Source of the DNA: Antedon mediterranea | Lineage: Eukaryota; Animalia; Echinodermata | Assembly (NCBI RefSeq): GCF_964355755.1 | Contig: NC_092670.1 | Span: forward strand, 18,276,795-18,340,794 | Direction: 5' to 3' | Length of the DNA: 64,000 bases | Shown: in pieces, positions 165 to 45,109 of the stretch | How positions within the stretch are numbered: the first letter of the stretch is position 1 | How the letters are laid out: the number at the start of each line of letters is the position of its first letter | Translations under genes and position numbers: made by a program | The notes under the pieces: generated by a model | The model's input: the letters and a program-made list of their open reading frames with translations, nothing else | Database searches by the model: none | Told to the model about the DNA's origin: nothing

Positions 165-1158
165 TGGCCAAACCGAGAGCACGTCCTGTTACCAAAAAAC
201 GATCAGAGCTGTACAAGATACGACAACAGGAATCGCGAGTAATAAAACAACAAAGATATCGTTATTTACACCAGATACGAAGATATAATGGCGATATTCT
301 TACACCGGTAAGTTGAAATTTTGCAATTTTTGAAATACTGTATTACTTATTACTTACATGGAATTAAGGGTCACTAATTGAATTAAAAGTTTAAATATTT
401 GTCTGTAGTGTCAATAACATCTAAACATTCTTATTATGATTCTATTATGCAATTAGTATTTGTTGACAAATAGCAAAGTATTTATTTTACAGAGTTATTT
501 ACAGAGTGTTCATGATGCGATGTCTCCAGAAGTACCGGAAATAATGGGCACATACGCAAACCTACCACCTTCACCGCCCTCACCGCCACCCAAGGGTATC
601 ACAAACTTACCAGAACTGCCTGATAATTTTAGTGACTCAACCACCGATGATAATAACAGGTGCAGTGTGGGAGATTACTTCGACGATGAGAATCGCAAAA
701 GTTGGAATAGCTTCTCTTTCCCAGACAACCTGCCAGAAATCTTTAAGGAAGATCGCGACAGTGGTGGACGCTTCTCCGTACACGAGAATCTACCACAATT
801 GTTCACAGATGATCGCAAGAGTAATGTTCGAAAGAGCACTGCTCGTCAGAGCGATGCTCGGCAGAGTGGTGCTCGACAGAGTGGTGCTCGGCAGAGCGCT
901 GCTCGTCAAAGTGATGCTCGGCAGAGTGATGCTCGGCCTAGCAGTGCTCGGCAGAGTGATGCTCGGCCTAGCAGTGCTCGGCAGAGCGGTGGTCGTATTA
1001 GTGTACCATCACGAAAATTTGAGGACAGCCACAAAAGTAATAACAGTCAAAAACGTAGTAATAGTTTCCTTGGAGAGTTCACATATGTGGACGATAATGG
1101 AGATGGACTCGGACAATACACTTACGTCGATGACGGTACGATACCGATGGTGGTATGA
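165..1158 (+). CDS. 3' part (last two visible exons) of an unidentified gene; Ser/Pro/Tyr-motif-rich, probably disordered cytoplasmic region
   Basis: Exon 165-307 (ttcttgtag| ... |gtaagt) reads AKPRARPVTKKRSELYKIRQQESR...GDILTP. It splices in phase 0 to exon 493-1158 (ttttacag|SYLQSVHDAM...IPMVV-TGA). Contains YANL, TYVDD x2, PPSPPSPPP, NLPE/QL repeats and ARQS repeats. The 5' end lies outside the window. Confidence 0.75.
841..990 (+). repeat. Coding 15-bp tandem repeat (10 units, ARQS[D/G/A] / ARPSS)
   Basis: Unit gctcggcagagtgat with codon-level variants; degenerate units extend from 811 to 1005. Confidence 0.95.
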
Positions 1159-3289
1159 CAATCAGCGAATATTTATGAATTGTCTCTCCCAAATGAAGAG
1201 GAAGAATCCTTATACCAGAACGATTTAAGTTAAAATCTTAAAACTATCATGGTAGATGTTTTAGCGTTGAATCTTAGTACAATAAGTTTGTGACGGATGG
1301 GTGTGTGTACCTTAGATTCGGGATTCTTCTAGCTTCACATGAAGAAAGCCAATTTATAAATATTCATACTAGATACTGGTCTTACAGACAGACCAACGCC
1401 TATTGTATATTTTGTAGATAGTCCTCAATCATATTGTGTACAAATAACTAATATTTCTTTAATATCTGTGTTATATCTTAAATATGTAATTTTCGCTGCA
1501 TAGTGCAAAATAAGAAAGCAAATTCAACGAATACCTTGCTTGTTTGCTATGGGAACAATTTGATTGGTACTACTGAAAAATAAGAGGTAGACATCGCAAC
1601 ATTTCCCTAAATTAATTCATTTTGTCCATGTCCAGTGGTGCTCACTCCTGATGCATTTACAGCCCTAATATATGTCTGTAAATTTGTGTCCATATTTGGT
1701 CATTGTCAAATTTTAATATGTCAATATATAATAGTAATACAATACATAGGTAAACATATGGTACGACTGTACTATTTATGGAACCCAACTAAACATGCCA
1801 TTGATTAAAATTATTGTATAATGTACATGCGATACATTAGTTCTAGTGTTCATTAAATATGATCAAAAACGTTTGGTCTTATAACAGTACATTATATATA
1901 ATTTGGAGTTTGAACAAACTTAAAGATGCCTCTAATCTCCTAAACTTTTATCTCCTAGCTTAAGTTTTGTTCACATTGGATTATCAATACAATCCCTATA
2001 GGACCTGTGTTCTTTCAATTCTTGGCTATCTTATCCGTCCAGCTAATCTGTTAATACCATAGTACAAGTGTTATTATTATAGTAGAGGTTTTACTGTATC
2101 AAACAAGTTCAAATTCAGAATAACTAAGGTCGAGGATGTCAGTTTAAACGCAGCTGGTATACATAAAGTTCTAATTCGGTTTTTCTAATCAGAGTATAAG
2201 CTGTCTGGCGGGGTGCTCTATTAGTCACATTAGGGCCAGATTGGCCAGCATAATATGAATTAATATACCATGGCTAGACCAATTAAAAATTGTATAGTAG
2301 GCCTATCACATCATTTCTGATCTTGTGTGTCAACCATATTAATATTATGATCAAATCCAAAAAGTAAGTGTTAATTTAACTTTTATTTTTATATTGTCTT
2401 GTGACATGGAAATTTGTGATATGATTGATTTTGTTTGCCTTTTATTTTGCTTGATTTAATAATAAAAGTGGTTGAAATAAAAAGAAAACCTTATTAAAAC
2501 TAGGCCCTGTCAGTGTTTGTGTCGACTGTGATGTGAATATCCTGGCCCAGTACACCTACTGTATGTGTGTGATATTTCTTGTACAAATACAGAAATACAA
2601 CTTAAGTATTTTCTGACTTACAGACATAGAATTTTACAACAATTATGATTGTGAATTGAATATTTAAAGAAAAATATTCAGGAAATATAAATAGGGTGCA
2701 ACGTTGGTTGGTAACAAGATGATGTCAATGATAGTTGCCCAAATGACAATGACTTATAGGAGTATTCAACTGAGCTGTTTAAGCAGCGGATGTAGCTCCT
2801 CAAATTCCCCTGCTGTTTATGTGGGAGCAGATCACTGCAAGGTGTTTGTGGGTGACCAGTTAAATACGCCTACTGTGTCCCAAGAGGAGTATTAAAAGGG
2901 AGATTATAGGTCTGTGGAAAATATGACCGTAAAGTCTTCAACAAACACTCCCATAACCCCCACATCCACCACCCTCTTCTTCCTAATCTGGCCTACCTAC
3001 AACAAAACCCCACAACCCCATATCCTCCACCAGTAGCTGTTATTCTGAATAAAGTATAGAATTGAGCTGCAGATACCAGCAATAATACAAATCCATACCT
3101 AGTCAATGTATATTGATTGCAATGGTGTGAAATTGTCGGTAAAACAAGCCAAATGATTATTGATGACCTAAGCAGTAAACTATTACAACTCTGTGTAGCT
3201 GTATTAATGTCCTTTCATTATGTGATGCATAAAATAATTGCCTTAAAATATCATATATGTTAGATACACTAGCTAGAACAATGGAAATA

Positions 3290-3450
3290 CAGTGGAATAT
3301 CCTCCTTTGGGACACCTAATGGAATTTTCCTCTGAATGAATGAAATGAGGGGAAATATGTATTATACAGCCAACTCCTATTCAGGGAACATCCCCTACGA
3401 AGGGAACACTGTTGGGTACAGAAGGTGTCCCCATAATAGCGGTTCTACTG
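3290..3450. mobile_element. Tc1/mariner (pogo/Tigger-like) MITE
   Basis: ta|cagtggaa ... ttctactg|ta: imperfect TIRs with TA target duplication. Confidence 0.65.
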
Positions 3451-4289
3451 TAAAACAGTATACAACTTTCCCAATACTTGACACCCAAAATATATGGTGT
3501 TTATGCCATTTACATACAGTAGTAGGAAAGAATTTGGGACCCAAATATTATGATTTTTGCAGAATTCCCTGCAGTATGCAGAGAGGGCTGATTTGGCAGA
3601 GTATTATATAAAAGTGTAAAATTGTAGATATATAAAATATAGAATAATTAAAGGATAGTTAAAAAATAATATAAATAATAAAAATTAAAGATGAATGTAT
3701 GGTATATTCCCTCCCTTCCTGACCATATAGTGTAATTAAACACTTATTATTATTATTATAAAACACTCGTCTACAGCTTGCCATCCAGATTCTGTTATGA
3801 TAAAAGTTTTAATTATTTGATAACGGAAGGGCGCCTTAATGTACCATATATTATTATTGTACCAATAAATCAATCATTTTAATCATTCAAATCTGCAGGA
3901 AATGAGATATTAGGAATACATGGTATCTAATAGCATTTAATGTATAGAATCAATAAGATCATATCATGTTACATCATTACTGTATAATGTACTACATAGT
4001 GTGTACTGAACCATAGAGCTTTGCTTTTTGATTAACAATAAAAAGAGAATCGCGTTACTTGCACATCCATTGAATATAATTCAGTCACGTTACCATTCTA
4101 TTCATTTCTGCGGTTTATAAAGATTTTAAATTCTGCCAACAGTTTGGAAATTGTCCAAAAAATTGAAGCCGTTGTCATGGCTTGTCATGTGATGATATGA
4201 TGAATTGTAATCAGGTTTTTTAACAAATTTAATTTTGAGGCCCGAAGATTATGGTTTTAAAAAGTGTTATTCAATTGAAATCTGCTATA

Positions 4290-4551
4290 CAGTAGAACCT
4301 CTGCTCTGGTACATCCATATTCAGTTGATATTCCTATTAAGTGGACACCTTTCCATAAATTTAGAGGCAATACAGAAGAACTCCTACAACAGGGACAAAT
4401 TCAAAACACAACAAATTCCCCCTCATTTTTTTAATGAGAATAGTGCTTCCATTTTATTAAACACTACTACCAATCCCTATTTAGGAGACATCACTATTAA
4501 GGGAACACTTTTGTTGGATCTTGAATGTGTCCCTTAATAGGGGTCCCACTG
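4290..4551. mobile_element. Tc1/mariner (pogo/Tigger-like) MITE related to 3290-3450
   Basis: ta|cagtagaacctc ... gggtcccactg|ta; shares internal 'ggacacc/gggaacact/gtgtccc' motifs with 3290-3450. Confidence 0.65.
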
Positions 4552-5348
4552 TATTTAATATTTATAAAAAGCTTTGTATTTGAGGATTTTAATATGTAAT
4601 ATTATTGTCTTGTATAATATTTAATTTTAATGGAAAGTTTCTTACTGTATTGTACATAACTGCCACTACACACCTGTAATGGTTTAAGTAATTTGTTGTA
4701 GGATAAAGTAAATTTATTTAATTTGTAATATTAATCAAATTAGAATCATCTTCCTTTGTTTTTGTATAATTAAATCTTACTATTTATATTAAATTATGTA
4801 AAAATTGATTGATTTGAAGTTTATAATAAAATATTTGCTTTTTAGATATTATCAGCGAAGAGTGTAATTCCACTTTTTCCCTGGATATTATCAATAATGT
4901 ATGTTAGTTACATAGCAGAGTGTTACGATTGGTTGATAAAGACAGTCTTATGGGAGAACTGTAAAGTGTTTTAGCCATGTATCTCCTGTATTGGTGTCTA
5001 CGTATCCACCCAGGAGTTTAAATGGGCGCACACTGTACTGAACAATCCTTAATGTTGTATTATTAGTATAACGAGCATTCACATTGAGAATTGTATTATT
5101 GAATCATACACAGCTGTTTTTACACAACAGCAGACCAATTATGTTAACTACATTGTTACTTTCAAGTCTGTTGTACAAAGAGTTAGACAAAGGGCATTAA
5201 ATGTTACAAATAATGTATCAACAAAATATTCAATTTTGTTATATTGATCTAATAAAAATATATTATGTTTTTGTTATGTATACATTTTATTGTACTATGT
5301 ATGCAAAGATGTGATAGGTGTAAGAAGCATTTAAAGGAGAAAAATGAA

Positions 5349-5620
5349 GGGGGAGATTGAGGGGTGTATTGTGTGGGAGAGGGAGGGGTGTATTGTGGGA
5401 GAGAGGGAGGGGTGTATTGTGGGAGAGAGGAAAGGTGGATTAGGGGAGAGAGGAGGGGTGTATTGTGCTGTAAGAGAGGGGTGTAATGGGGGAGAGAATG
5501 AGGAGTATATTGGGGAGAGAGGAGGTGTGTATTGGGGAAGAGAGTGAGGTGTGTATTGGGGAAGAGAGTGAGGTGTGTATTGTGCAGTGTGGGGGGGGGG
5601 GGGGGATGTATTGTGGGGAA
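5349..5620. repeat. G/A-rich minisatellite (~21 bp, gagaggagggg-tgtattgtggg)
   Basis: Direct tandem units are visible and explain the ORFs at 5344-5698. Confidence 0.9.
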
Positions 5621-8096: not shown

Positions 8097-8765
8097 TACA
8101 AGTAATGTGATCACACAACAAGTAATGTAAACACACAAGTAATGTGTACATACAAGTACTGCGAACACACAAGTAATGTGAACATACAAGTAATGTGAAC
8201 ATACAAGTAATGTGAACATACAAGTAATGTGAAAACACAAGTAATCTGAGCACACAAGTAAGGTGAACATACAAGCAATGTGAATACACAAGCAATGTGA
8301 ACACACATAAGCAATGTGAAAAAACAAGTAACGTGAACATACAAGCAATGTGAACACACAAGCAATGTGAACACCAAGGTGAAAATACAAGTAATGTGAA
8401 CACATAAGCAATGTGAGCACACAAGTAATGTGTACACACAAGCAATATGAACATACAAGTAATGTGTACACACAAGCAATGTGAACACATAAGTAATGTG
8501 TACACACACATAAATATGAACGCACAAGTAATGTGAACATACAAGTAAGGTGAACATACAAGTAATGTGAACACATAAGTAATGTGAACACACAAGTTAT
8601 GTGAACACACAAGCAATGTGAACACACAAGTAATGTGTACACACACAAATATGAATGCACAAGTAATGTGAACATACAAGTAAGGTGAACATACAAGTAA
8701 TGTGAACACACAAGTAATGTGAACACATAAGCAATGTGAGCACACAAGCAATGTGAACACACAAA
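8097..8765. repeat. 18-bp minisatellite (aagtaatgtgaacacac[a]), ~36 units
   Basis: Long degenerate tandem array; produces the three repetitive Cys/His ORFs on the minus strand. Confidence 0.97.
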
Positions 8766-11679: not shown

Positions 11680-11997
11680 TATTATATAACACCTATATAA
11701 ATTCCTGTCATTTGATTGGACGAATGTGGGTCACATGGCGTGCAATAGTATGCACTATTCAACGATCGTTAAATAGTACTTTTTGAAACATTTTTGTGTA
11801 CGAAAAAAAAACGTCTAGATGTTATATAAAACAAATAATGAATGTTTTGTATTCGTGTAATGGTACAAATAATGGCACTTGGTGAATGATGAAAGGTTAT
11901 ATCAACTCGGCTTTGCCTCGTTGATATAACCTTTCATCATTCACCTCGTGCCATTATTTGTACCATTGCACTCATAAACATTCATTATTTGTATAAT
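11680..11997. mobile_element. Non-autonomous repeat ending in a ~165-bp imperfect palindrome
   Basis: Arms ~11830-11911 and ~11915-11993 around a ttt loop. The 5' part (tgtcatttgattggacgaatgtgggtcacatgg) recurs inverted at ~30410-30458. Confidence 0.75.
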
Positions 11998-12422
11998 ATG
12001 CAATATTAAAAATAGTATAAATACAGTATAGTATACATGTTACAATAATACCTATGACTATTCATACTAACATAGCACTGAGCAGTATATACTTTATGCA
12101 CTTGCTTAGGTGCCAGGTTAGTTTCACATTTAAAACACATGCAATCATGTCAAAATGTATATTTCGTATGAATGGTAAGAAACATATTTTTATCTAAACT
12201 GGCCATCTACAATTTGAACAGTTCAATTTATGTGTACAATCTCAAGTTACTCTGTCTAGCAAAAGTCTGCCAGACTTATGCAATTTCAATCCATCTTAAA
12301 TTCGAAAACTATATTGACAACAATCACAAAATACATGACATTTTTCAATTCCAGTTCCCATAAACTTATATATTAATGTTCTGCAAACGTTTTTGACTGA
12401 CAACCCTGTAAGTCAATTGATA

Positions 12423-12580
12423 GCAACACTTGGACGGAGGTTGGTGGCAACACCTAGACAGAGGTTGGTGGCAATACCCGGACGGAGGTTGGTGGCAAAA
12501 CCTGGACAGAGGTTGGTGGCAACACCTGGACAGAGGTTGGTGGCAACACCCGGACGGAGGTTGGTGGAAACACACCTGGA
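12423..12580. repeat. 24-bp GC-rich tandem repeat (ggacagaggttggtggcaacacct), ~6.5 units
   Basis: Direct repeats; account for the overlapping ORFs at 12366-12722. Confidence 0.95.
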
Positions 12581-19761: not shown

Positions 19762-21600
19762 AAAAAATGTGAAAATGGTTGGCTTTTCGAATAGACAAAA
19801 AAAGTATTTAAACATATTTATTCTTTGATATTTATCATGCAGTTCTATGTTAAAACTGACAAATTATGAATGTACTAAATAGCACATAATCATAATAATA
19901 TGGTCTAAAGGAAATTGTTATCAAGATTAAATAGTTTTTGTCTTTTAGCTTATCTGCTACTTAACGGATCACTTCAGTGACTCACAGAAACATTTTGTTC
20001 TTTATTGTAGAATGTACGCAAACTGGTGTGTGTTGAGCTAGTTGAAGCAGGCTTTATATTGTAGGCTCAAACTTGCCAGCAACATTCATTAATCAACCGT
20101 TGACATTCACATTCACTTGTCAATTTATATTTTTCCGGCATCCTTGAAGTGATAATTTGTTTCCAGTTCAAAGTTGCAACATTTAAATGCTAATCTGTAG
20201 ACATTTCCTCAAGAAAATGTCATTCTTGGAATTTGAATGTCTTGTAGATGCAAAATAAATCTCTTAGTTCTTGGAATTGTTTTCTTGAACTTTTGCACTT
20301 TTTTTTACATTCTGCTTTTAGACGTTCTGCCTTTGCTTTCTGCTTTTAGACAATCTGCCTTTGCTTTCTGCCTTTATATTTTATACTTTTAGACTTTCTG
20401 CCTATAGACTTCTGCATTTATTTAAACTTTCTACCTTTAAACTTTCCACTTGACTTTTTCTTCATACATCTGACAAACCGAAAATATGATGGAAACAAAC
20501 TTTTTAAAGGGTTGCATTTCTTCACAATTGTAGAAGACTGTCTAATTGATGTATTCTTACTTCCAGAACAGATGTCAACTTAATTTGTATGAACTTTGAC
20601 CTTCCTTTCTGTATCTTTTCCCACAAAACCTATTAGATGACATATTCTTTCATGGAAGTACCTTGGCTTTACAGTTTCCGGAATACTTTCCGTTCCACTT
20701 GCTTTTATTTTCTTCTAATTTTCTTTTTTCGGTTTCACATTCCTTTTGCATTTACGCTTTCTATTTACATTACATAAAGATCTTTAAATATAAAGCATTT
20801 TACTGTTATGCAAATAACCCATCTAAATTAATACAATTCCACAATAAAAATTATATGCATTAACTCCTGAAATGTTGATTAATGAATGCCAACTTAAATA
20901 TTCCCTTTCTATTTGTGTAACCTTCGTAAGACTGCAGTCACCTTTACATGTTTCACCTAAAGTAAACTTACTGTACACCACTAAAAAAGACTCTTAAAAC
21001 CAGTTTGAGTTTTAAAATGCTACCCTCAAATGTCTTATACAAAGATAGTTTACAAAGTTGAGGGTACTTCAGAATACATGAAAAAATGTACACAATACAA
21101 AATTATTTACAATAAAATATGTAAAGAAATATTATACAACTTATCACATGTGTATATGGCCTTTCTTCTTGATACTTTGATGTAATGATGTAGTAGCACA
21201 CACAAGTAGAGATGGTCTCTGGTACCAATATTGGTCAATGGTAGCAGCAAAGATTCCTGGTAGCAACAACCCCTGGTAGCAGCAATGGTTTCTGGTAACA
21301 GCAAACCTCCCTGGGTGCAATCAACTGTACCCAGTAGAAGCAACAGTACCAAATAGCTGCAACTGCCTCTGGTAGAAACGCTCTCTGGTAGCAGAAATGG
21401 TCCTAGCTATCACCAATGGTTACCGGTAGTGTATCAATGGTTACCGGTAGTAGCAATGTACCTTGTTAGCATCAAAATTCCATAACAGCAGCAAAATTCT
21501 ATATGCTTCAGGGACTGTAGGCCTCTGACCATGACTGTATGCCTCCACTATCTGGTAGTGCATCCTTAGTTTTAAACCCATCAGAGCTAAAATGTTGCTG

Positions 21601-24600
21601 TTACGTGGCTGGTATGAGCGAGACATTAATCATAGACAGATCCACCATGTGTCTGTAATGAAAGATAAAACAATAAATGTCTCGAAGTAGAAGGGAACTG
21701 TGGAATATTATTTAGGGTATTTGTGTGCTAATTTAGGGTACTTGGAGAATTGTAGGTGTGGTAGTGGACAATAGTATATAAGAATATTTGATTATCAAAA
21801 GCTGCAGTCAAATCTTTTTAGGTATAGGAACTCCTCAGTTGTCTGCCCTGTTTTTATATACAGTATTCATATATTTTTACAATTTGGAGGAAATGAATAT
21901 ATTATTATTACTATATTATTATTACACTTTAAAATATTAAAATGTCTGTTTATAGTTTAGCTTTCATACCTGTTGTATTTCTTCTGAAACATGTATGCAT
22001 GCTGTGGGTTGTGAAATGTTACAAACGCTTTCCTCTGGTTTGGAATAAAATGACAATTCTGAAACGAAATGAGAAAAGCAAAACATGTTTGTGTGATCAG
22101 ACCTCTTATATAACTCTGATAGATCACAATTTATCTCTGATGGAGAAATGAGTGTGTAAACATAGCTTCTACCTAATATTACATTCACATGCAAGAAAAT
22201 GTAACTTATTGTAACAATTCTACAGTATCAAACTTTGTGTTTATATCCATATATGGACATGATAATGTCATATCACTACCATATTTTTGTCGCATACAAT
22301 TTGATAGTGTAGACAGAGCTTTAGTTATATTAGTAGAGTGAAAGAGAAAAGTGAAAAAAATGCACAAACCTGTACAGAACCAACTGTCTTGGCCATCTGA
22401 ATGATACCCTGAGTCACCGTGGATGCGGACAGACCTTCTATGAGCACTCGGTTTAGAATTGCTTCAGTCTGAACTAATCTAGCACCTTCCAAATGGTTTA
22501 CTTGTTGTTGTCTTTGTTGAAACTGTTCAATGTTCTGTCCAGGAGGTATAACAACCCTTTGCTGGTGGCTGGGTGGAACCTGCTGATGGATCTGGTGGTT
22601 AGGGGTTACAGCGCCCCCAAGCCTGTCTTTAACACTCTTTCGTGCCGGTGCTGGCTGGTGTTGGATATTTCCTGGAGTTTGCTGCTGGTGTGGTTGATGC
22701 AGGCCTCTTCCAGTACCAGGGAAGTTTCCTCTTCCGGCTGAGGCATTCCCTTGTCTGGCAGGTGGTTGATGGCTACTCCCTCCCCTCTGCTGTCCTCTAC
22801 CCCGGCCAGTACCTCGTACTCCCCTTCCTCGCATGTTTCCACCTCCTCTTGTCTGTTGTACTTGTTGAGGAACAATATTTTGTTGTGGGTAACCTGGGCT
22901 CTGAAATTGATTCACTGGGACCGGTTGTAGGCCAGTCTGTTGGGGTGGAAAATTCTGTTGAAATGGCTGCTGATTTTGAGTAGGGTTATTTTGATGTTGA
23001 TTTTGGTGGTGTTGAAACCCTCTTCCACGACCACGCCCTCTGCCTCTTACTGGATGACCCTAAAAAATTATAAAAGTATACAATTCTTGATTTTGCATAC
23101 TATTAATAGAAAAAAAATACTGAAAAGAACAACTTAAGGAAAGAAGCATGAAGCCATGTGGTACTGAGGGGAAAGGAGTTTATTGTTGTACTTACTCTCA
23201 TGTTGGTTGGTGGTGTATTGGTTCTTTGTGGTGTTGGCATGGGTGCAGGTTGATTACCAACAGTGGGTATGGGTCTTGGTTCATCCACTAATACCTGATA
23301 AAGACAAATATTATTGCTCAAATTATTACATTATTAATAGGAGTATGGTATATGAAATTTATGATGCAACCAAAACACTGTTCAGATAAAATTATTTATA
23401 TTTACAAATTGATTTAATATTATTACTTTGAGATTTTGCTGCTGTTTCCACACTTTAACCGAGGTGTCTTGTAGTTGATGGTGTGGTTCTAGGTAAGTGT
23501 GTGGTTGTTGGTAAACTTCAGGTTGTGGTTGCGGTTGTCGGTGCACAACCGGTTGATGTTGGTAAACATCCGGTTGATGTTGCCGGTGGCCTTCTGGTTG
23601 ATGTTGGGGCAGTTGGTAACCTTTTGGTTGATGTTGGGGTGCTTGGTAACCTTTTGGTTGTGACTGTTGGTACTCATGTTGTGCATATTGCTCTTGTTGT
23701 TGGTTTAACTTTTGTCTCATTTGTTGTTCTAACTTTTTAGTTGGTGTACCACCTCCTTGTTTCTTTCCATCTGGCGTTTTCTTTGCTTTATTTGCTGGTT
23801 GCTTCGCTGGCGGTGCTGGATCAAGACCAAGTTTTTTGGTAGCTTCTGCCACATCGTGACCTTGTTCAGCCAAGCGTTTCTTTAACGCTTCTTGACGTTT
23901 GGCAGCAAGCTGTTGCCGCCGTTCTTCTTTACGTTTCATAATCTCCTCTCGTAGTTTCTTTTGTTCTTCTATCTGGATCCTCAAACGTTTTGTTTCCGCA
24001 TCTTCGTTGGTCTCCTATTGTTCAATAAAAAATGATATATTTAGGCACACATTTTATTAATTTAGTATCATTATATATAACAGTTATGCCTACAGAAAAA
24101 AGTAAATTGTTTTTCTCCAGTGACTGTATTCAAACTAGTTTGATAAAAAAAGTGTGATATGCCCCCATATAGTAGTGTTATGACAATATACGGTTACATC
24201 ACATTTTGTTGTCACATAAAGTTTGATAGTGTAGACAGAGCTTAAAGAGTTAGCAAGGTTATATCTGACCTAAGTTAGTTTGACTCACATGAGGTACGGC
24301 TACTGAAGACTTGTTAACTGCTTCTTTGATAAGAGTTTGTGGAGGGGCTGCCAATTTAGGTGACTGCTTAGGAGAAGGAGATAGATTGGTTCGTTGAGGA
24401 GAGCCAAGATTTGGCGAAGATGAAGGAGGTGATGAATAGTTTGGAGGCGCCTTCTTTTGTGAACTGTTACATGTAAAAATAAAGAGTTGATTAATCATAA
24501 CATAGTTATACCGTTTATTTTTCATACGGCCAATTGTCTTAAGCTCTGTCTACACTATCAAAAAAGTGCGATGTGCAAAAATATGATAGTAATATGCCCA

Positions 24601-27600
24601 AATACGGTTGTGATATGACATCATTACGTCCATATATGGGCACATCAGATTTTTTTGTCACATAAAGTTTGATAGTGTAGACAGAGATTTATGATAGAAT
24701 GAGACATACATTTGAAGAGTATTGTTAGATTATGAAGCAAGAGAAAAGAATTCTGAAATACCTTGGTGTCTGGTGTCTAAATTGAGGTGACGGCTGTCTG
24801 TAATTTTGACCGGGCCCTTGAGGTGGGCCTGGGAACCTTGGTCTTGTTTGGCCTAGGTTCATTCCAGGTTGATTTAGTAAATGTGGTCTATGCTGGTTTG
24901 AATGTTGGTGTTGCTGCTGGTGCATGGGTGGAGTGGTGAACCTAGGCTGTTGTTGCTGTGGCCGGTAGTTTGGTTGTTGTTGGGGTGTATGAAACTCTGC
25001 CCTGGGTCTATGCTGTTGATTTGGGATTGGTGGTCGCATCTGGTGTGGTTGCTATTGTGTATTAAGATCAAAACAATATTTGCAATCATTTAAAAACTAA
25101 TCGATGCACTGATTATGTTTAAATAACATAACGGTATAAAACTTGTTTTAAATAATGTGTACACTGGACCTACGGTATATAATCCTTATCCGAGCAGACT
25201 TGTTCTACCACTAGAACTATGGAGTGAGTGTGAGCCTTGAACCATTGCCAATGTTATGGCTACATTCTTACGGCTACACTGTCTTAACCGCTCGGCCATT
25301 CACTCAAGTATGAATTTAACGGTTTGATATTTATTATCAGGAATTAATAAAAATCAAACTTCCCTCTAATTATTTGGCGTACATTTTATACTATGTTGTA
25401 ATGATTTATTTATTCATAGAGTAAACACAGGCTGAAATTACGTTACAGCGCTGATTGAACAAGGATATCAACATCATAAAATAATTTAAAAAACAGAAAG
25501 GTGTAGGAGAAAGTATCCTACCTGCATTCTAGGTTGAAATGAATTCTGCTGCGGCATCTGATTGTCTGGTACCCTCTGTGAAGGGGGACTAAAATGATGT
25601 GAAGGGGCATTGAAATTATGTGAAGAGGAGACTGCTGGTTGGTGGTCTCTGTAATGTTGTTGCCCTAAAGTAATAATTGAAAAAATTCAATTTGTATAAA
25701 GAGAATGTATTTTTTCAGGAAATCATATTATCAAGAATTAATTTATAAAACTGTACTGTATTGTGATATGATTGGTTCTTAAGTAAATACTTCAGATTAT
25801 TATTTTTATATATTAAATACTACTTTTAAGCAAATATATGGCAGCCATTTTAGGAAGTACCTGGCTTTTCCACATCATTTTGTTGCCTAGTTGGCTCTCT
25901 AGTACTTTAATAGTATATGTAGGATAGATTTATAAGACAACATAATATTTAATCATGTAAAAATAAGAATTGTAAGATTCAATAAAGGCTAACCTTGTTG
26001 AGGGTTTGTCCATGTTTGTGATGGGGTCAGCCTTGGAGCTTGGGTCCATGATGATACGGGCGATTCTTGCTGTCTATTAATATAATTTTCAGGTGCTCTG
26101 TTCTGATTCTGAAAAAAAAAACACAACAAAGTTATAAACTGGAAGTAAGAAATGCAAATTAAAACATAAATCAATATACAACAAACCCATACAGTTGTCA
26201 TAAACAAAATATGATATCAAATTTTACTTACTGGTAACCCAGGGACATTTGTAGTTGATGATGTCACAATGCCAGGAACTTGCTGATTTTGGTTATTCCA
26301 AGTTTGACCTGTAGAAAAGGAAAAATATTTGTCAACAATAAGGATGAATTTGGGCTCACTTGTCTAGGTTAAATCTAGCCTTTGTGCATGGGTTTGAGTC
26401 TTGCTGTTACATGCTAATAATCTGCTGTGGCGGCAAATCCGGTGCGGATGCAGCAGAACGGATCATATTTTTACTACACACCTGGTGCTGCTGACATGAG
26501 TCTTACTATAGAAGAACTTTGGAATATCAAAAGTATTTGGTACAATTATGAGAGCAGCTTAAAGAGAGCTATAAAAGTGATAACATACCTTGTGATGATA
26601 CTTGTACTGTTCCTTTAAAGTGAGGATTAATGTGAATCTTGTTAGGCTGCTGATTAGGCTCAGATTTATGAACAACAGCACTCATTGACGATGATGGTGG
26701 GTGCATTGGTAGACGCTGGTGGGGGGTAGGTTGCCTTGGTGGGGTTTGAATCAGAGGTGGGTTTTGCATCAATGGCGGCCTTGGCTGATGCATCTGTGGT
26801 CTTATATGGCGTTGTTCCTGCTGGTCAAACATCGTAGGGTTCATTCCCATAGGAACGCCCTGTGGTCCAATCTGTGGGCCACCCTGTGGTAGGTTCCGTC
26901 GTCTATCGTGATTAAGAATCGGTCTACACGGAAATCTCATGCGAGAAAGATTTCCAATATTGTCACCACCAGGACCACAAGTTTGGAAATTGTCACAACG
27001 ACCTCCACGTTGCGAGAAGCCACCACGCTGTTGGTTCCCACGCTGATGCCCATAACCACCACGGCCTCCTCGCCGGTTGCGCTTTGATTGTTTCTCTTCT
27101 TCTTTCTTTCGATTGAATTCATCTAGCTTTTCCTTTGCTTCTTGACTTAACTCTGAAAACAATAAAAAAAAATAAATAAAGTTAAAACAAAATGTCTTTA
27201 ATAGCTTAATTTTGAAACCTGAATAATAAAAATGTTCAAATTCTCAAATATACCTAATGTTTCTGGAATATCTCGTTTACTGCGAACAGATGGTTTTACT
27301 GCAACAGATGGCTGACGCTCCGACTTAAATCGTCCCCTACCAGATTCTTCTTTCTCATCCTCTTCCTCCTCCTCACTTTCACTTGATTCACTTTTATTTG
27401 CGTCATCAATATTTTCTTCTACAGGTTCTTCTTGTGTATCTACTTTGACGTTGTCATCTTCAGCAAGTTCCTTAGAAAAAAATTTAATTATTGCACATTA
27501 TTTTTATTAAATATATAATGAGGCCAAAGATTTTTTTTTTTGCCTGAGCAAAGTATAAAAAAAGGGTGAGTTTGTTTAATTGTTTGAGGGAGCAACTCTC

Positions 27601-29176
27601 AACACAAAGTAAGACTAGCTATTTACAATAAACTTACCCGAGTTTTTTCTTGAATCGGTTCTTCATATCGTTCTTGCGTTTCTTTTTCTGGTTCGCCTTT
27701 AAAATTACTCTCTGTCGTTGCGTCCAAATCCTCATCAAAGTCATCGAAAGCTTCATTAGTAATATCAATATCTAATACATCTTCTGTTCCTGAACCATTT
27801 ACAACTGAGTCAAACGTCTTATCAGCCAATTGGCTTGGCACTGTGTGATCCTTTGATGAGTCCAAAAAATCATCCACTTCCGTTTCATCATCATCATCAT
27901 TGTTAAATTTCCCTACATTGCTAATGAACTCTTCCTCTTCAGTATTTGTAAGACTGTCAATGTGGTCTGTTCCATTTCCATCTAAGGGTAGTTCATCATT
28001 GGTTGTAGTTGTATCGTCATTCCAGGCATTGTCTTCACTATCACTGAGACCTAATAGTGCTGCTTCATCTAACTCATCATCAGATTGATCTCCTTTGGTC
28101 TGGTAAAAATAATCATATATATTATTTTAATTTTCTTTTTACAGCCATTTGTCTATTTCGATACCTTTCGGGGACTAATATTGGTGAAGAGGACAAGAAT
28201 TTTTTGCCAAATTTACAGAACAAGAAAATCAAATCGAGAAAATAAAAGGTGGGAAAATTGGTGGGAAAATTGGCTGGAATTTAGGACCTCAAAAAATGGT
28301 AGTACAGTATACAATACTATAGTACTTTCAGGTAGTCAACTGTTTTGTTAAACTTTAGGCTGGGTAGAGGGCCTCAAAATAAGCTTTAGGGTCAGTAAAC
28401 GACCGACCTTGAAGGTAGAAAACATTTAAGGAAATGCCTGATTCCTTTAATTACAAGTTCAACATTGTCAATGTCAATGTTTTAAGAAAGGACGAAATTA
28501 TAGTTTCACGGTCCATTGTCAATATTCTTTTTTTTCACTATTTTTTTAACGTAGATGTGTAATTACTAATAAAAAAAAAACATGAATATAAAGTACAAAA
28601 TAATTGTTAATAATCTCAATAAAAGAAATCATTGTGTAAGTATCTATCGCCAGCAATACCTTTTTAATTAGTAAATCATCTTGGAGGAGCTCATCGTCGC
28701 TGTCCCATGAATTAAAATTTCTCTTTCGACTTCTCCTTCGTGGATCAGAATCATCTACGATGAGAAAAAGCACAAATTAATAATTTTTATAAAGATTAAA
28801 AAATTCAATTTTCAAGCTATTTTCTCCATTTTAAATTTATTCCTCGTAACCCAACTAGGCCTAGGCCTAGCCTAGCCTAGGCCCTAGCTAGGAGTATAAG
28901 TAGGTAGCTATGTATATTTATATAGGCCCTAGGAGCAACCAAATAGTTTATATGATACCAGACCTCGGCTACACAATGAAAATATAGGCCAAGTACTAGC
29001 TAGCAGTTAAAGGCTAGGCCCTTTATGCAGGTATTTAGGCCTAACAATAGACTGGACTAGATAGACAGGACAGCAGGAGGAGAGGGTACAATGTGAAGCA
29101 CGCGAACACAAAGCTGGCCTAGAAATTACACACAATTATGAAGATATAACTGGGGCTTACCATCAATTTCCGTCAT
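21601..29176 (-). CDS. RBM33: RNA-binding protein 33 (Pro/Gln-rich, coiled coil, C-terminal RRM), 15 exons, ~1223 aa
   Basis: Exons: 29176-29161, 28754-28660, 28099-27638, 27470-27254, 27152-26589, 26308-26232, 26108-25994, 25664-25522, 25051-24762, 24463-24289, 24014-23427, 23294-23196, 23059-22370, 22058-21970, 21652-21601. All GT-AG and phase-consistent (3672 nt). Motifs I recognise from RBM33: WDSDDELLQDDLL, GRFKSER...IPETLELSQEAK, IHINPHFKGTV, IEEQKKLREEIMKRKEERRQQ, and the terminal RRM VLIEGLSAST...QRKAFVTF...HMVDLSMINVSL. Confidence 0.92.
22219..22320. mobile_element. Harbinger-type MITE family A (RBM33 intron)
   Basis: Family core sequence and right TIR gtgtagacagagct. Confidence 0.85.
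24118..24242. mobile_element. Harbinger-type MITE family A (RBM33 intron)
   Basis: caaactagtttg...gtcacataaagtttgatagtgtagacagagct|taa. Confidence 0.85.
24542..24688. mobile_element. Harbinger-type MITE family A, full length
   Basis: tta|agctctgtctacactatcaaa ... tttgatagtgtagacagagat|tta: ~21-bp TIR with TTA TSD (TWA is typical of PIF/Harbinger). Confidence 0.9.
25156..25305 (-). mobile_element. tRNA-derived SINE, 5' fragment
   Basis: Reverse complement matches the head of the 33274-33595 element (gagtgaatggccgagcggttaagacagtg...ggttcaaggctcac...gataaggattatataccgtaggtcc). Confidence 0.8.
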
Positions 29177-30811: not shown

Positions 30812-33800
30812 TTAGAGCGAGAGTTGTGTTGTAAAAGTTGTTTGTCCATTCAGGCTCTCTGGGTTTGGTAAGGGCGAGACAAGCTGTAAATAACCCCATG
30901 ATCCATCAGTCCTACCACAGGTTGATGTAAATGACAGGATTTGATTGGCTCCTGCACCTGAAAATAATAATAATAATGTTCAATTTATATAGCGTAATAT
31001 GCAGGGCGCCTCTAAGCGCTGAACAATCAACAGAAAAAAAGCACAGAATTAATTAAATGTATAAAAATAAATAACAGAATTAAAATAAACCAATTTTTAT
31101 TTAATTGAATGGTTAATACCATTTGGAATAACCAGGAGTAATAGGCTATAATTCTAAATATTGAAATTGTTCGTAAACTTTTTCAACAAAGAATTATGTA
31201 TTAATATTCATCCTTTTTTTAAAAAAACCATGCTTTTCAAGAAGTTAACTGTAAATAACACACTAGATTTGTTTTAATTATTAATACATTTTTATCATTT
31301 TATTTTCGACAAGTAAAATGTTGTTTAAATATTGTTTCATGTATATCCTCACTTCAATTGAATACAAGACTGAAGCTCTGTCTACACTATCAAACTAGTT
31401 TGACCAAAAAAGTGTGATGTGCCTAAATATGGTAGTGATATGTCAAAATATGGTAGTGATATGACATCATCATGTCCATATATGGGCACATAGCATTTTT
31501 TTGTCACATAAAGTTTGATATTGTAGACACAGCTTCAGTCAAGTTTAGAGGGTGAGCTTATAACAGAGGACCAAAATGGTTTGTTTTTTTAAGGTGTAAT
31601 TTGTTCAGTTAGAAGTTAGTTTACTTACCAGCTAAAGAAGCCAGGACCTCAGCTGGAGCTGCTTGTGTCTTGTACAGTAACAAATGCCCAGCAAGCACAG
31701 CAGGGCCTTGGAATGTTGACCCATCAATCTCACATAATACTGGTGATGTTCCCATAACAGTGCCACTCAGCTTACAACTGATTGCACCTGCGGTTGCGAC
31801 TACTGACACAGCGTTTGACAGGTTTGATGGCGCTAACTCGATGTGCTCCGTAACTGCCTATAAATATTTGTTGAAATATAAAAATAAATGAGTGTTTAAA
31901 AAAATAATAATATGTAACGCTCTGTTTACACTATCAAACTAGTTTGACAAAAAAAGTGTGATGTGCCCAAATAAGGTAGCGATATATGCAAATATGGTAG
32001 TGATATGACATTATCATGTCCATATATGGGCACATTTTTTTGTCACTTAAAGTTTGACAGAGCTTAAGAATATTATGTTATGTCTGAACTTTCCAACAAA
32101 CAATACAGGTACAAGTAATGGAACCGTAAAGTACTCCCTTAATAGGGGTGTTCCCAGTGTATGTAGACATTCCCCATTGTTTGTCTTACATTACAGTGAC
32201 TCCTTAATATGAAAGATTTTACTGTATAACAAATATAATAAAAGCAGCCAGGAAAAGATAAACAAAATAGGTATTTATCTAACTACAACAAAAACTCCAC
32301 ACAGATAGTCACGCATTAATCAGGGTTATTCCTTCTCATTTATTTAGTCAATGGCTTTACTTTACAATAAAATTTAATGAAAAAAAACAAAAAGATCGAC
32401 GTTTCGGAACCATCATGGAACCATTTTCAAGATCAAGTGATCGAATTATACAGGCCTTCTTTGATGTTAATTAACCAATTAATTAGTATTTCCTTTCACC
32501 CATTGGTGTTTTTGTATTAATTTGTAATGGCTTTCTTGCCAGGTTTAAGATCTACTAACCTGTAGGCCTATTTCTTTAGCAAGCACAGGGGCATTAACTA
32601 AGTTAACTTTGCTTGATGACTTAGATTTTACCATTCCTGATAACACTGCGGCTGATAAGTATTTCCCAGCATCCTTCAGGTTGTCACCTATCAAGGCAAT
32701 AAAGGTCAACAAGTGTAAAGCTCTGTCTACACTATCACACTTGATGTGATATGCCCATATATGGACATGATGATGTCATATCACTACCATATTGGGGCAT
32801 ATGACTATCATGGACACATCACACACTAGTTTGATGGTGTAGACAGAGTTTAAGAATAGTGAGCCAAATATTTTAAGACCTGAAAGTACATGCTTGTTAA
32901 AAATATGATTTGACCTTTGACATTACAGGGTCAAGAAATTAATTTGATATGAGACTATAAAACAAACTCTGGATAAAGTGAGGAAAGCTATTGTGATTCA
33001 ATATTTTGATGGCATATAGTTACTATTGCTTACCGTAAGTTATGATTTGCACTTTCGTATCTGCCTTCACAGATCCAACAATGGATGTTGCCAATAAGCC
33101 CAGGGCTTGTCCTAGGTTAACCAGAGGGCGTGTGTCTGGTTCTAAGGCATTACTTAGAGCCTGGGCATTAAGCTGTAGATAAAATGAACACACGAAATAT
33201 TTACAGTTAAATTAAGTAAATGAAATGTATAAGAGAGTAATTTATTAGAAAACAGAACAGTATGGGTGATAAAAGCGAGTGAGTGGCAGAGCGGTTAAGA
33301 CAGTGGAACCGTAGCCCTTAACATCAGCAAGGGTTCGAGGCTCACTCGCTCCATGGGTCTGGTGGTAGAACGAGAGTCTTTCCAGATAAGGACTATAAAC
33401 CGTAGGTCTAGTGTATACATCTAGCTCATGTGCACTTGCTGGACCTACACACCTGCCCCTAGTACCTCTTTCCAGATGAGTAGAGAGTTACCCCAGTGTA
33501 CTAGTACATCACAGCCACTGATCATAACTGGGCCCTCTGGGAGAACAGTCGTTAACTGAAGAGGTCACCCAGTATAAATAATAATAACAAACAAAGCGAT
33601 AACTGGTGATTAGGCCTATAACTAAATCTCTGCCTACACTTATCAAACTTTGTGACCAAAAAAATGTGATGTGCCCATATATGGACATGATGATGTCATA
33701 TCACTACCATATGTGAGCACATGATTTCACTTACAGCTCCAAATAGACTTTTACCATTTGAGGCATCTACAAACTGCTGGGCGATTTCTTCAGCGACCCT

Positions 33801-40031: not shown

Positions 40032-43000
40032 ATGATTGAAAGTGTCCAACAAATTTATTCACGAAAACATCTAGTTATTTATGTTTGTTGTATTTTCTGG
40101 TTACAATGTATTTCAGGTATGTGGATTACTTATTACTTTATTCAATATTCAAGTTAATTAAACTACAGAAACATTAGTATTAAGCATTTGTTATATAGTT
40201 TTTAAGTCCAAGTAGTACGTTTCGTTAGTGAACGGCCAGGGTACCTAGATAGAGAAACAATGATTTACGCGCGCGTTCAAATGTTGATAATTTGTACGTA
40301 CGCGCGCGTTCAAATGTTGATAATTTATACGTACGCGCGCGTCAATTTCGTGTTTCATTTTATCAATTTTTTTACGTAATTAGGTGACACAGACGTTTGT
40401 GATTTTGAGACAAATCAGTGTGGGTACACTCGAGACGACACCGGCTTCGCCAAGTGGTTCAGGAATTATGGTCCGTCCTGGTTGAGGAGTACAATGGGGA
40501 CGACTGGACCCGCAACTGACCACACTGAAGGGGCTGGTAAGTTTGTATAGAGCCCACACTATCATTTTTTGAATGAAGAGGAGTGGTGGTAGAATGAAAG
40601 TCCGTAATATGGACACTCGAAAAAAACAAAACTATAAATTGTTTTCCCTTTAATCTTTTGTTTTGTTTCCTCGAAATGATTATCGAAACTAAAATTGTCA
40701 GAAACAATGATACACTTATAATTTATTTCGATTTTTTATGGATTACCAACATGGTTTTAGCGGATTTTTATACAATAACGCATATTCATTTTTCATTATT
40801 TACTGAATATTAATTTAAAGAAACACTTTGACCAAATCACATTTATTTTTACAGAAACCGGTTTTTATATGGTGATGTTGAACATCCCCAACCTTTATGT
40901 ATACGACCCGGGGGACAAAGCACGTATTGTGTCACAATGCTACCCAGGAAGTCGCACAGTTGACGTCTCATTTTACTACCACATGTACGGGGACGGTATC
41001 GGACAACTGAACGTCTTCCTTGTTGACTGCAGCCTTGCATCGTCTCTCGGACTATCGGTAATTAGTCTATCTGGTGATCAAGGTGACGAATGGAAGTTGG
41101 CTGGATTCTCACAGGCTAATGTAGGAGAATTCAGGGTAAATAATTATAAAGCTTTTAGGCCTACACGAAAGATTTCTATCATTGTATTCTCCTTGTTGAT
41201 CATGTAACATCAGCTTATAATTGTAATCAAAAATAGCAGGGCTTCCCTGGTAATAATATAGATCATCTGTATGATTCGAGATTTTTTTAACGGGGAAGCG
41301 CCGAAAGCGTACTATCAAATAGTCTGTCAAAAATAGATATTAAAAAGTGACGTCATTTTAGCTGTGAAACAGGAGGGGCACGGTCAATGGTTAACCCCCT
41401 CCCCCAATATGTTAAGCCTATATAAATAGCCCGATATTATTTATTTTTTAAAGGTTTTGTTTGAGGCAGTTCGTGGGCCAACTAACAACAGCGATATTGC
41501 CATTGATGACATAACTGTAGAAAGTGAGTTGGAATTGATTTTCGCTTTGAGTAGTACAAGATTTTAATATAAAGTACGGTAATTAAAAGCTTTGTTATAA
41601 AGATGTAGAACCTGCAATTATTTCTTTTCTTTTAAACCAGGAACAGAGACAAATGCAGTCACAAACCCACAGGATTATTTAGATGAAGGTAAGTATGTAG
41701 GCCTATTAAAATAATTGTTGTCGCCACCTAACGCTATGTTAAATTTGTATCCATTTTGTGTCCATAAATAATCTTAAATGTTGATTTACTATGAAATAAA
41801 AACGAATTACGTCGAAAAAACAGTTTAATTCCCAATTAAGCCTGTTACAAGGTGAATGTAGGCCTATATTACGTGAATTGAAACGTCAGCATGCGAATCT
41901 TTTATTTCAATCTCTTTTTTGCGATGAGAAAAAATGCGCAACCAAAGTTTTAAAATAGGTTTTTGTCTTGAGTAAATACTATTTTATTAAACTAAATTGT
42001 TAACAATCGTGTTTGGCCATTTTTACTTGTTTGTAGCTTCTGTAGTATGCACGTTTGAAATAGATCCATGTGGGTACGTACAAGACAAAACAGACGACAC
42101 TGATATGATATACAACCACGGGACATCATGGCTTCGGCAAGTGGACGGGTCAACTGGTCCCACAAGTGACCACACCAATGGGATAGGTAAGAAGAGCGTG
42201 GCATCGGAAGGTAGAAATGTTCGAAAAAATCGGATCGAATTATTAAGCTTTGTTTCTGCTTAGACCACATCGGATATTTTGACCCATCATAACGCATGCG
42301 TTGCGCCTACGACATTGCGCTCGTCCAAAGGTGGAAACGAAGCTTTAGAAATGAAGGGCGTTGGTCTTTTTTAAATGCAAAACGCGGTGCGCGCGGCACA
42401 TACGTTAATCGAGCAACGTTTTAACGTCATTAGCGTGCCATAGCCCAACAGTTTTAATATTTTCATCTTTCATTTCCAGAAACAAACTTCTATATGATCT
42501 TAATGAATGTTCCCGGCCTGATAGACTTACAGCCTGAGGACAAAGCTCGTCTTATATCACCGTGTTACACAATTTCGTCATGGGTGCGAATTCAATTTTT
42601 CTACCACATGTACGGAGTGGGAATGGGGACGTTAAATGTGTATTCGTCAAATTGTGAGCAATTTTCGGAGAAAAGAATTTTAATCAGTATATCTGGTAAT
42701 CAAGGCGATGAATGGAGAGAAGGTAGTAGAACCGCACATGCGGAAGGTGGAGTTCAGGTAAAAATAAGATCACTTTTATCACATAATAAAGTTTCAGAAG
42801 CATAAAAGAGAACAGCCGGACCTTATAACCCTCTGCTTAACAGTTTTTTAAAAATCTTTAATTGTTTTAGTTCACATTTGAAGCTGTACGTGGATCAGAT
42901 TATACCAGCGATATTGCAATAGATGACATCGCCCTCTACGGTAGGTTAAACACGAACTTTTTTTAGTTAAGTGTGCCACAAGGCAATCTAACAGGACACT

Positions 43001-45109
43001 GAGCTCGCCTTGCTTTTGATCTCACGTCTGGTCGCGACAAATACCAACAGTACAGTACTATTTTATTCTTGCGCGGTGTCAGTTACGGGTTTGATCGTGT
43101 CGCAGCCACAGAAAAACCCTTTGATCTTCAGAGCTCAGCATCCTGTTAGATTGCCCTGAGTGTACACATCTACTACTCTAAAATAAAATAAAATATAGTT
43201 CAGTAACCCACTAAAAGTCTTTATCTAGTATTTCCATGGACCAAATAAAATCCATTAAACAAACATTTAAATAATTTTTTAATAATTAATGTTTTCTTGC
43301 ATTTAGCTCTCAACGAAGAAGATATAACCACCACCACAGAAAAAGTGACTACAATAAGAATAGTGACAACAGATGAAGGTAGATACACATTACTTGAGCT
43401 CTGTCTACACTATCAAACTGTGACAAAACAAATGTGTTGTGCCCATATATGGATACGATGACGTCATATCACTACCATATTAGGCACATCACACTTTTTT
43501 TTGTAAAAAAGACAGAGCTTTATTTATATTACTTTGTATAAATGAGAGCATTTCGTGTTTATTAATACTTTTTTTTATTTACAGCTCCTCTTGAACCGAC
43601 TCAAACTATTCCAGAAGTACCGGAAGTAGAAACCACTATGGGTAAGCAACTCACTATATCTTTCCTTTTCTTTAATATTTATTGTAGCATCATAAATAAA
43701 TAAAGCCATAGAGTTAAATATTTGCAGTTTGTGTTTTTATATAATATGGTAAATTTTTCAGTGGAACCAACAACACAGCAAAAGGTCACGACATCAGAGG
43801 TCATTGAGGCAACCGAAGGTAAATTAAATGTTTGTCACGTGAATATTTAATACTTTAGCAAAATAATATTGGGAAAACTTTAAAATGGCATATATTTTAC
43901 AAAAATTCCTTGACGCAATGCAAGAAGTAAGCGCAACGCAAGTTATTCGACCAATCACGACGCGATGGATCACCGAACTGTCGTTTCTGATTGATCAACT
44001 AACTTGCGTTGGATAGAGGAACTTGTGTCCAAGTGGGAATCAAGCTGTACGTAGAGAACAAAGGAAGATAAGTTTTATCGAATTTATTTTTGTTACTCTT
44101 TAGAAGTTACGACGACGGAAGCCCAAGTAGACCCATGTGATCCCAATCCGTGTCAGAATGGGGGTGAATGTTCAGTCGACAGTTCAAATTCTTACGCATG
44201 CGTATGCATGACACAGTGGACTGGGGACAATTGTGAGTCTGAAGGTACGTAAGATTTTAATAAATCTCATTTTCCTAAATAATGTACTGTCAAAGCAAAG
44301 TTTGTTCATTTGCTAAGAGCATGGTTAGTCGTACTCACTTTCTTCAAAAAACTTATTTATAATTCAATCCTAACAACGATGACCTGCTAACAAGTACATA
44401 TACTGATTCACCAGTACACCACTAATAAACAATGGATACCTATAACTGTAGTTTGCTTCGTATTTATATCATGTATTACGTCATTCTATGAATCATATTC
44501 ACTTCACACATTTTTAAAATAAAATGTATAATTGTTTTTTCAGCGCAAACTGGCCTTTCTGCTACTACTGAAGAAGACAGTTCTGGCCTGACGGCTATTA
44601 ACATTGTTGCCATTGTCATCGCCTGCATCACGGTAATTGTCCTTCTAGGATGTTTCCTTATTTTCGGGTACAGAGGACGAAACAACACACAGGATACAAA
44701 ACAGCGAAAACTACAATCACAACCGTCTTACGAACGCGCAAGGCAGCTACAAGAACAGTTACAAGGAAGGCAGATGCATTTACCGAAGACAAAACAGACG
44801 TACCAACAGAAACAGCAACTGTTAGAGGAGGAAAAAAGGCGGCAACGAGAAGAGCAGCAGAGACATGAAGAAGCAGAGCGGTTAAGAAGGGAGCGGCTTA
44901 GAGAGCTACATTTAGAACGTGAACGTCAGTTGCAAGAGCAGCTAGAAAAAGAAGAAGACGAAGATCCGGAGCTTTATACAATTAAAAATCAGATATCAAC
45001 AGACAGTATTGAGGAAGATGATCCCACGAGAGTGCGTCCTCCATTACGAAAACAACAGTCGAGCGGAAGACGATTACCAAAACTTCCCAACAATCAGAAT
45101 TTCGTGTAA
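40032..45109 (+). CDS. Type I membrane protein: signal peptide, 2 MAM domains, Thr/Glu-rich stalk, EGF domain, TM, Gln/Glu/Arg-rich cytoplasmic tail; 13 exons, ~675 aa
   Basis: Exons: 40032-40116, 40384-40536, 40855-41135, 41454-41523, 41641-41688, 42037-42186, 42480-42757, 42871-42940, 43307-43378, 43585-43641, 43762-43818, 44104-44244, 44544-45109 (2028 nt, phase-consistent). MAM hallmarks occur twice: CxFE..CGY, TGPxxDHT, FxYHMYG..G.LNV, GxQGDEW, FEAVRG...DIAIDD. EGF: CDPNPCQNGGEC...CVC...WTGDNC. TM: IVAIVIACITVIVLLGCFLIFGY. Confidence 0.9.
40255..40356. repeat. Small CpG-rich palindromic/tandem element (33-bp unit tacgcgcgcgttcaaatgttgataatt) in intron 1 of the MAM gene
   Basis: ~2.5 direct units bounded by inverted gaaac..acgcgcgcgt / acgcgcgcgt..gtttc. 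Confidence 0.7.
42979..43158. mobile_element. hAT-like MITE
   Basis: caaggcaatctaacagga ... tcctgttagattgccctg; flanks agtgtgcca / agtgtaca resemble a decayed 8-bp TSD. Confidence 0.7.
43397..43519. mobile_element. Harbinger-type MITE family A (MAM gene intron 9)
   Basis: agctctgtctacactatcaaac ... gacagagct. Confidence 0.88.

Follow-up and report, generated by a model that had tools for sequence, protein, structure and literature searches.

The open reading frame at 457-1158 of the window, by which we mean the whole 64,000-nucleotide stretch of DNA analysed, is part of a spliced eukaryotic gene. Judged by sequence, this frame, with its candidate readthrough stop, forms the final exon of a gene orthologous to TMEM198. 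The exon at 165-307 gave a single match, from two candidates in the protein search, to a TMEM198-like protein of Anneissia japonica (P0001, 425 aa, PF13886; accession XP_033106243.1; 85% identity, E 4e-14), and this one match points to a crinoid as the probable bearer of the gene. The last exon aligns to the tail of P0001, and both window exons thus align to a PF13886-bearing protein; membership of the TMEM198 family is indirect, via P0001, the membrane-domain exons lying outside the window. A splice joint at 306/492 with GT..AG ends is present in contigs of the sequencing runs X5 and X9 and defines the exons 165-307 and 493 onward. An additional exon lies upstream of 165-307, beyond the window (loose contig end at 163). 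The features of the locus are as follows.

165..307 (+): last but one coding exon of the TMEM198 orthologue, encoding a basic juxtamembrane segment (P0001 match; 306/492 joint)
493..1155 (+): last coding exon to the first stop, low-complexity cytoplasmic tail (likely), ending ...IPMVV (alignment to P0001)
1156..1158 (+): first stop UGA, candidate readthrough codon (same in X1, X5, X6, X8 and X9; P0001 ends at the aligned residue)
1159..1166 (+): CARYYA hexamer (CAATCA, 1159-1164) inside an 8-nt spacer ahead of the predicted stem (no pairing of the spacer in the 1156-1380 fold)
1159..1230 (+): extension in the same frame, 24 codons long (25 residues counting one read at UGA), acidic, with two tyrosines, QSANIYELSLPNEEEESLYQNDLS (open frame)
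1167..1210 (+): 5' arm of the predicted duplex, with helices at 1167-1182 (16 bp), 1194-1198 (5 bp) and 1200-1210 (11 bp) (prediction)
1231..1233 (+): second stop UAA, followed by A (sequence)
1320..1365 (+): 3' arm of the duplex, past the second stop in the 3' UTR (prediction; on one contig with the stop in X5 and X9)

Several other features occupy the window. At 40500-45109 (+) there is a single-pass membrane protein gene with at least two MAM-like exons (PF00629 match for 40779-41204), an EGF-like exon near 44105-44245 and a cytoplasmic tail that is coiled and rich in Glu/Arg; it ends TAA-A. A bHLH gene at 54117-54698 (+; PF00010, E 2e-19) presumably resembles paraxis/scleraxis, and the multi-exon gene at 21000-28800 (-), with acidic N-terminal exons and Gln/Pro/RG-rich exons, is one that we take to resemble RBM33. 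A tRNA-Phe (GAA) gene lies at 58151-58223 (+). Minisatellites are found at 5359-5584 (units of 23-24 nt), 8098-8764 (17 nt) and 12423-12580 (24 nt).

The hydrophobic segments of P0001 end at about residue 237 and give way to a basic stretch (15 K/R in residues 236-290), a layout that makes a cytoplasmic location likely for the present tail. The available text of PMC8473786 and PMC8494741 describes vertebrate TMEM198 as a scaffold for CK1 and LRP6 that crosses the membrane seven times and has a cytoplasmic tail. The likeness of the window protein to it consists of orthology via P0001 (TMEM198-like, PF13886) and a cytoplasmic-tail-like layout. The vertebrate tail has about 110 residues, whereas that of Anneissia has about 190 and that of the window protein is longer still; the crinoid tail is also rich in tyrosine motifs, unlike that of vertebrate TMEM198. 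Six tyrosines of the tail (493-1155) are common to the window protein and Anneissia, with diverged spacers between them. A 15-nt tandem repeat at 840-995, in frame and encoding about 10 copies of A-R-Q-S-x, is absent from Anneissia; in organism B it is 30 nt shorter, with the frame kept.

Re-reading the sequence reproduced the layout given in the earlier note: an ORF ending ...IPMVV, TGA at 1156-1158, then CAATCA (1159-1164) and a frame open for 24 codons until TAA at 1231-1233. Over 1141-1235 all five runs examined (X1, X5, X6, X8 and X9, from a list of nine) carry one identical sequence; these runs cover two species and three studies and were examined as contigs, a form in which rare variants or forms may be lost. 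X5 represents a further sample and study of organism A, and X9 represents organism B; X1, possibly the source of the window, has no differences from it. The three differences between X5 and the window all fall outside 1141-1235, as do the 9/9 listed for X8 and X9, and X6 has none in this stretch among 8 of 10 listed (differences near contig ends omitted). In X5 and X9 the stop is found in spliced contigs, and hence in two species. The Anneissia protein, whose end is known from the protein and not from the codon, finishes ...STLPMPV, in exact alignment with the window end ...GTIPMVV; identity is 67% over the last 48 query residues, the tail having diverged yet the end residue being the same. 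From these sequences, UGA 1156-1158 is a genuine, conserved end of the main protein.

These data bear on two explanations other than readthrough. The earlier note had proposed looking for the TGA in orthologues and other haplotypes, in view of a base-call error or a recent CGA>TGA nonsense allele that would have truncated the true C-terminus. Such an origin would suit a tail that resembles the upstream protein in composition; however, the TGA recurs in 5/5 runs, which represent two species and three studies, and in the distant Anneissia the protein has the same end point. We therefore rejected both variants of this explanation, which now have a negligible probability. Alternatively, splicing could skip the stop by using either of two dinucleotides that are present, a GT resembling a donor at 1153 and an AG lying in frame at 1199-1200; part of the tail would then be ordinary coding sequence. 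Against this, 306/492 is the sole joint in the five runs, with neither a joint nor a loose end near 1150-1235, and the two real acceptors are richer in pyrimidines than the candidates, so that we regard splicing around the stop as highly improbable.

The claim that a tobamovirus-type CARYYA context follows the TGA was borne out, and this context is rare: it follows 3/2413 TGA triplets and 16/8470 stop triplets (0.19%) in the window. As set out by Firth et al. 2011 (PMC3159437), the tobamovirus motif reads xxA-UAG-CAA-UUA-xxG. The sequence GTA-TGA-CAA-TCA-GCG fits this pattern including the A at -1 and the G at +9, with UGA replacing UAG, and is the sole match to the full pattern in the 64-kb window, where 0.36 would be expected anywhere. 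The site thus resembles tobamovirus-type readthrough (e.g. of the TMV replicase) in having CARYYA immediately downstream of the stop, with A at -1 and with G at +9, and differs in having UGA with CAAUCA rather than UAG with CAAUUA; tobamoviruses are also without extended 3' conservation, according to the available text of PMC3159437. In an OPRL1 reporter context CARYYA gave about 15% readthrough, with UGA and UAG alike (Loughran et al. 2014, PMC4132726), a value that, as given there, belongs to another gene's context and to the CAAUUA form of the motif. A cellular instance of tobamovirus-type readthrough is reported for Arabidopsis eRF1-1 (PMC5397192).

A predicted long-range stem is new here and goes beyond the earlier note. 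Pairing is predicted to be collinear, joining 1167-1182 with 1350-1365 (16 unbroken pairs, one of them G-U), 1194-1198 with 1333-1337 and 1200-1210 with 1320-1330; the first predicted pair lies exactly 8 nt after UGA and the arms of the basal helix are 167 nt apart. The fold of 1156-1455 has a z of -3.87, with 0/200 shuffles as stable, and pair probabilities were 0.99-1.0 in 5/5 context lengths, the longest being 1 kb. When stretches of 75-145 nt were folded, no structure emerged (z -1.85 to 0.54); the stem forms once 1320-1365 is included. The 3' arm and the stop lie on one continuous contig in X5 and X9, the runs showing splicing. A helix of at least 16 bp at +4..+14 follows 4/1400 sampled stop triplets, three of these being clustered at 11943-12008, and the duplex energy of -40.3 kcal/mol was matched by 20/3000 other sampled stop triplets and by 0/1000 shuffles of the partner region. 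In a blastn search the hairpin was not repeated in the window (best other match 20 nt, E 0.039). Long inverted repeats at about 11800-12020, 31350-31570 and 42960-43180, possibly miniature transposons, were the strongest null matches in the duplex tests.

A duplex of this kind, long, AU-rich, near-perfect as predicted and adjoining the stop, could also guide A-to-I editing that makes the UGA encode tryptophan in part of the transcripts. However, the main duplex does not include the UGA, and in the contigs of the spliced runs X5 and X9, a form of data that drops rare variants, neither position 1158 nor the arms show A>G. Editing is, in our view, very unlikely.

The in-frame extension is, as far as its sequence goes, an open, coding-like frame up to the UAA, with a modest coding score. 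Open frames of at least 24 codons follow 466/2413 TGA triplets in the window (19%), and the open frame alone is therefore weak evidence. Under a codon model trained on 1285 codons from three other window genes, the score of the tail was reached by 43/1037 open non-coding frames and stands at the 23rd percentile of held-out coding windows, for a coding/non-coding likelihood ratio of 3.4. The 1037 null frames were drawn from unmasked sequence after known genes and simple repeats had been masked, and they still include some genuine coding or tRNA sequence. Codon and residue comparison upheld the view that the extension resembles the upstream protein in composition. In motif tests made post hoc, six or more acidic residues occurred in 0.2% of null frames and an acidic-context YxN, which the extension contributes as EEESLYQN, in 0/1037. 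The EEEE run of the tail is encoded by the purine-rich arm of the predicted RNA stem, so the codon score is not independent of the stem, and the acidic run may reflect RNA structure rather than selection on the peptide.

Protein searches for a protein carrying the tail found none (81 candidates led to P0001 alone, another search gave no candidate, and 0/4 were exact), as would be expected if annotation stops at the first stop. Nine protein matches comprised P0001 and eight repeat proteins; these eight were rejected as sums of weak repeats, on alignments for P0003, P0001 and P0004 and on domain counts for the rest. Two loci from a metagenome scan, both matching the 15-nt repeat alone, were likewise rejected, and an ESM Atlas query with the P0001 tail gave no usable match.

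Decoding of the UGA as selenocysteine, which the earlier note had raised while seeing no clear SECIS, would accord with the identity of the codon and with a long 3' UTR (about 2 kb or more; the X5 contig covers 2303 nt from 957). The observation about SECIS stood and the alternative did not: an Rfam scan of 1100-5300 returned three weak matches and no SECIS family, a pattern scan returned eight candidates with a best fold of -8.5 kcal/mol, and the site closes a low-complexity tail that has no redox motif. We attach next to no weight to this explanation.

Twelve coding differences from the window are listed, 11 from organism B and one from X5, and all 12 are synonymous. The synonymous rate among the differences listed is about 9 per 100 synonymous sites, taken from the unique coding parts with the repeat at 841-1005 left out. 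At that rate the absence of changes in the 78 nt of the stop-to-stop stretch has P 6e-4, and the absence of changes in the 90 arm nt has P 2e-4. Five A/B differences fall in 1159-1510, none of them in the arm nt, and the earliest indel beyond the first stop falls at 1236, shortly past the second one. The remaining proximal 3' UTR carries 5 changes in 277 nt (Fisher P 0.59 vs the tail). Since the proximal UTR is nearly as conserved, the A/B data do not separate coding from RNA-level constraint or single out the tail; organism B is a close species in which the tail is invariant and so without synonymous changes, and the invariance of the arms there means that there are no compensatory changes and no covariation. 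As support for a readthrough tail this conservation is suggestive only.

Considering the position of the stop, its context and the predicted stem, we propose that the TMEM198 UGA is probably a site of programmed readthrough, giving a minor isoform extended by 25 residues. The earlier note had put forward readthrough as a functional C-terminal switch. The readthrough part gained from the shared stop position, the spliced contigs of two species and the predicted stem at +8 nt; the functional switch is a more tentative proposal. In the proposed mechanism the CARYYA hexamer and the stem would together weaken recognition of the UGA by the release factor, the 16-bp helix 8 nt downstream being expected to sit at the mRNA entrance of the ribosome when UGA is in the A site. 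Most ribosomes would terminate at the UGA, yielding a major short form that ends M-V-V. In a minority, a near-cognate tRNA (for UGA: Trp, Cys or Arg) would decode it, and the ribosome would then unwind the stem and halt at UAA-A after adding 25 residues, so that the minor long form would end with an acidic tail containing two tyrosines.

The mechanism of readthrough is itself already known. In the cassette of Firth et al. 2011 a stem of at least 10 bp starts 7-12 nt after the stop, and the predicted helix falls within this description. According to the available text of that article (PMC3159437), an 8-nt spacer precedes the MuLV pseudoknot, the tobravirus stem (at least 12 bp) and the stem of Drosophila kelch (14 bp, 268-nt loop), VEEV has a spacer of 8-9 nt and a 101-nt loop, and stem mutation revealed up to tenfold stimulation. 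The TMEM198 site shares with the kelch, tobravirus and VEEV/Sindbis cassettes the UGA, the 8-nt spacer, and a stem (10-14 bp or more) with its 3' arm at a distance of 100-270 nt, here as predicted 16 bp and 167 nt. Those cassettes combine UGA-CUA, UGA-CGG or UGA-AUG with long ORFs, in contrast to CARYYA with 24 codons here, and the 3' arm of the stem predicted here lies past the second stop in non-coding UTR, unlike theirs. Joint action of a +4..+9 motif and a proximal stem is described for Drosophila drifter/vvl (dfr), with about 18% readthrough in S2 cells and with the motif, stem stability and stem distance all setting efficiency (PMC13170385, available text); the benyvirus UAG-CAA-UUA with its local stem is alike in the same two respects (PMC3159437). 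In both, as far as the available texts describe them, local hairpins follow UAG and the extensions are long, whereas here a long-range duplex is predicted after UGA.

How often such a site would arise by chance depends on which features are counted. Multiplying four feature rates gave about 1e-7 per stop, or 0.002 per 25,000 genes, and the hexamer and duplex alone would occur by chance about 0.3 times per 25,000 genes; both products assume independence and the number of genes, and the features were chosen after being seen. Predicted structures accompany 9-10% of insect readthrough candidates vs <1% of other transcripts, in the available literature. Abundant readthrough was reported in Pancrustacea only, among 52 species, in an article whose main text does not contain the word 'urchin' (PMC5100048), and the prior for readthrough here is therefore low. 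This low prior, the roughly 0.3 coincidences expected per genome, the equally long open frames after 19% of TGA triplets and the constraint on the entire proximal 3' UTR between A and B would all suit an ordinary stop, with the duplex acting as a 3' UTR element (localisation, stability or dsRNA binding) and the hexamer and open frame coincidental. We consider this explanation unlikely, as it leaves unexplained the stem at an 8-nt spacer together with the full tobamovirus-type context and the coding-like frame.

If the UGA is read through, what the longer form does is a separate matter. A class II PDZ ligand is a hydrophobic-x-hydrophobic C-terminus, and a Grb2-SH2 ligand is YxN. The hydrophobic M-x-V end that the earlier note assigned to the short form is a pattern common to Anneissia (MVV / MPV), with M at -2 and V at 0 kept. 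Its two proposed SH2 docking sites come down to one, YQN being a YxN and YEL not; one upstream tail tyrosine is a YxN in both species (YAN / YTN). Both the putative PDZ-type end and the YxN site are pattern matches. Given readthrough, we would assign roughly a third of its probability to loss of the PDZ end with gain of YxN, and roughly two thirds to effects on mRNA or protein turnover with an incidental peptide. Readthrough might shield a transcript with a long 3' UTR from decay, or alter protein turnover; for plant eRF1-1, protection of the transcript from decay has been proposed (PMC5397192, available text). Among the titles and beginnings of abstracts covered by a literature search, with subscription journals mostly outside it, there was no case of readthrough in an echinoderm nuclear gene or in TMEM198. 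Tentatively, and with some doubt, we suggest that a doubled signal, a tobamovirus-type hexamer joined to a kelch/alphavirus-type long-range stem that reaches past the second stop, may switch the C-terminus of a crinoid Wnt-pathway scaffold from an end that binds PDZ domains to an acidic tail bearing phosphotyrosine and back; if so, this would be the first functional readthrough described for an echinoderm nuclear gene.

According to the available text of PMC5100048, insects and crustaceans show abundant readthrough, and elsewhere it is rare. By joining both known classes of 3' signal, the candidate TMEM198 site offers a compact, testable model, and the combination of a stop, CARYYA and a stem at +8 provides a search pattern for the genomes of invertebrate deuterostomes. 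If the tail is functional, translation would tune the partners of a regulator of LRP6 phosphorylation.
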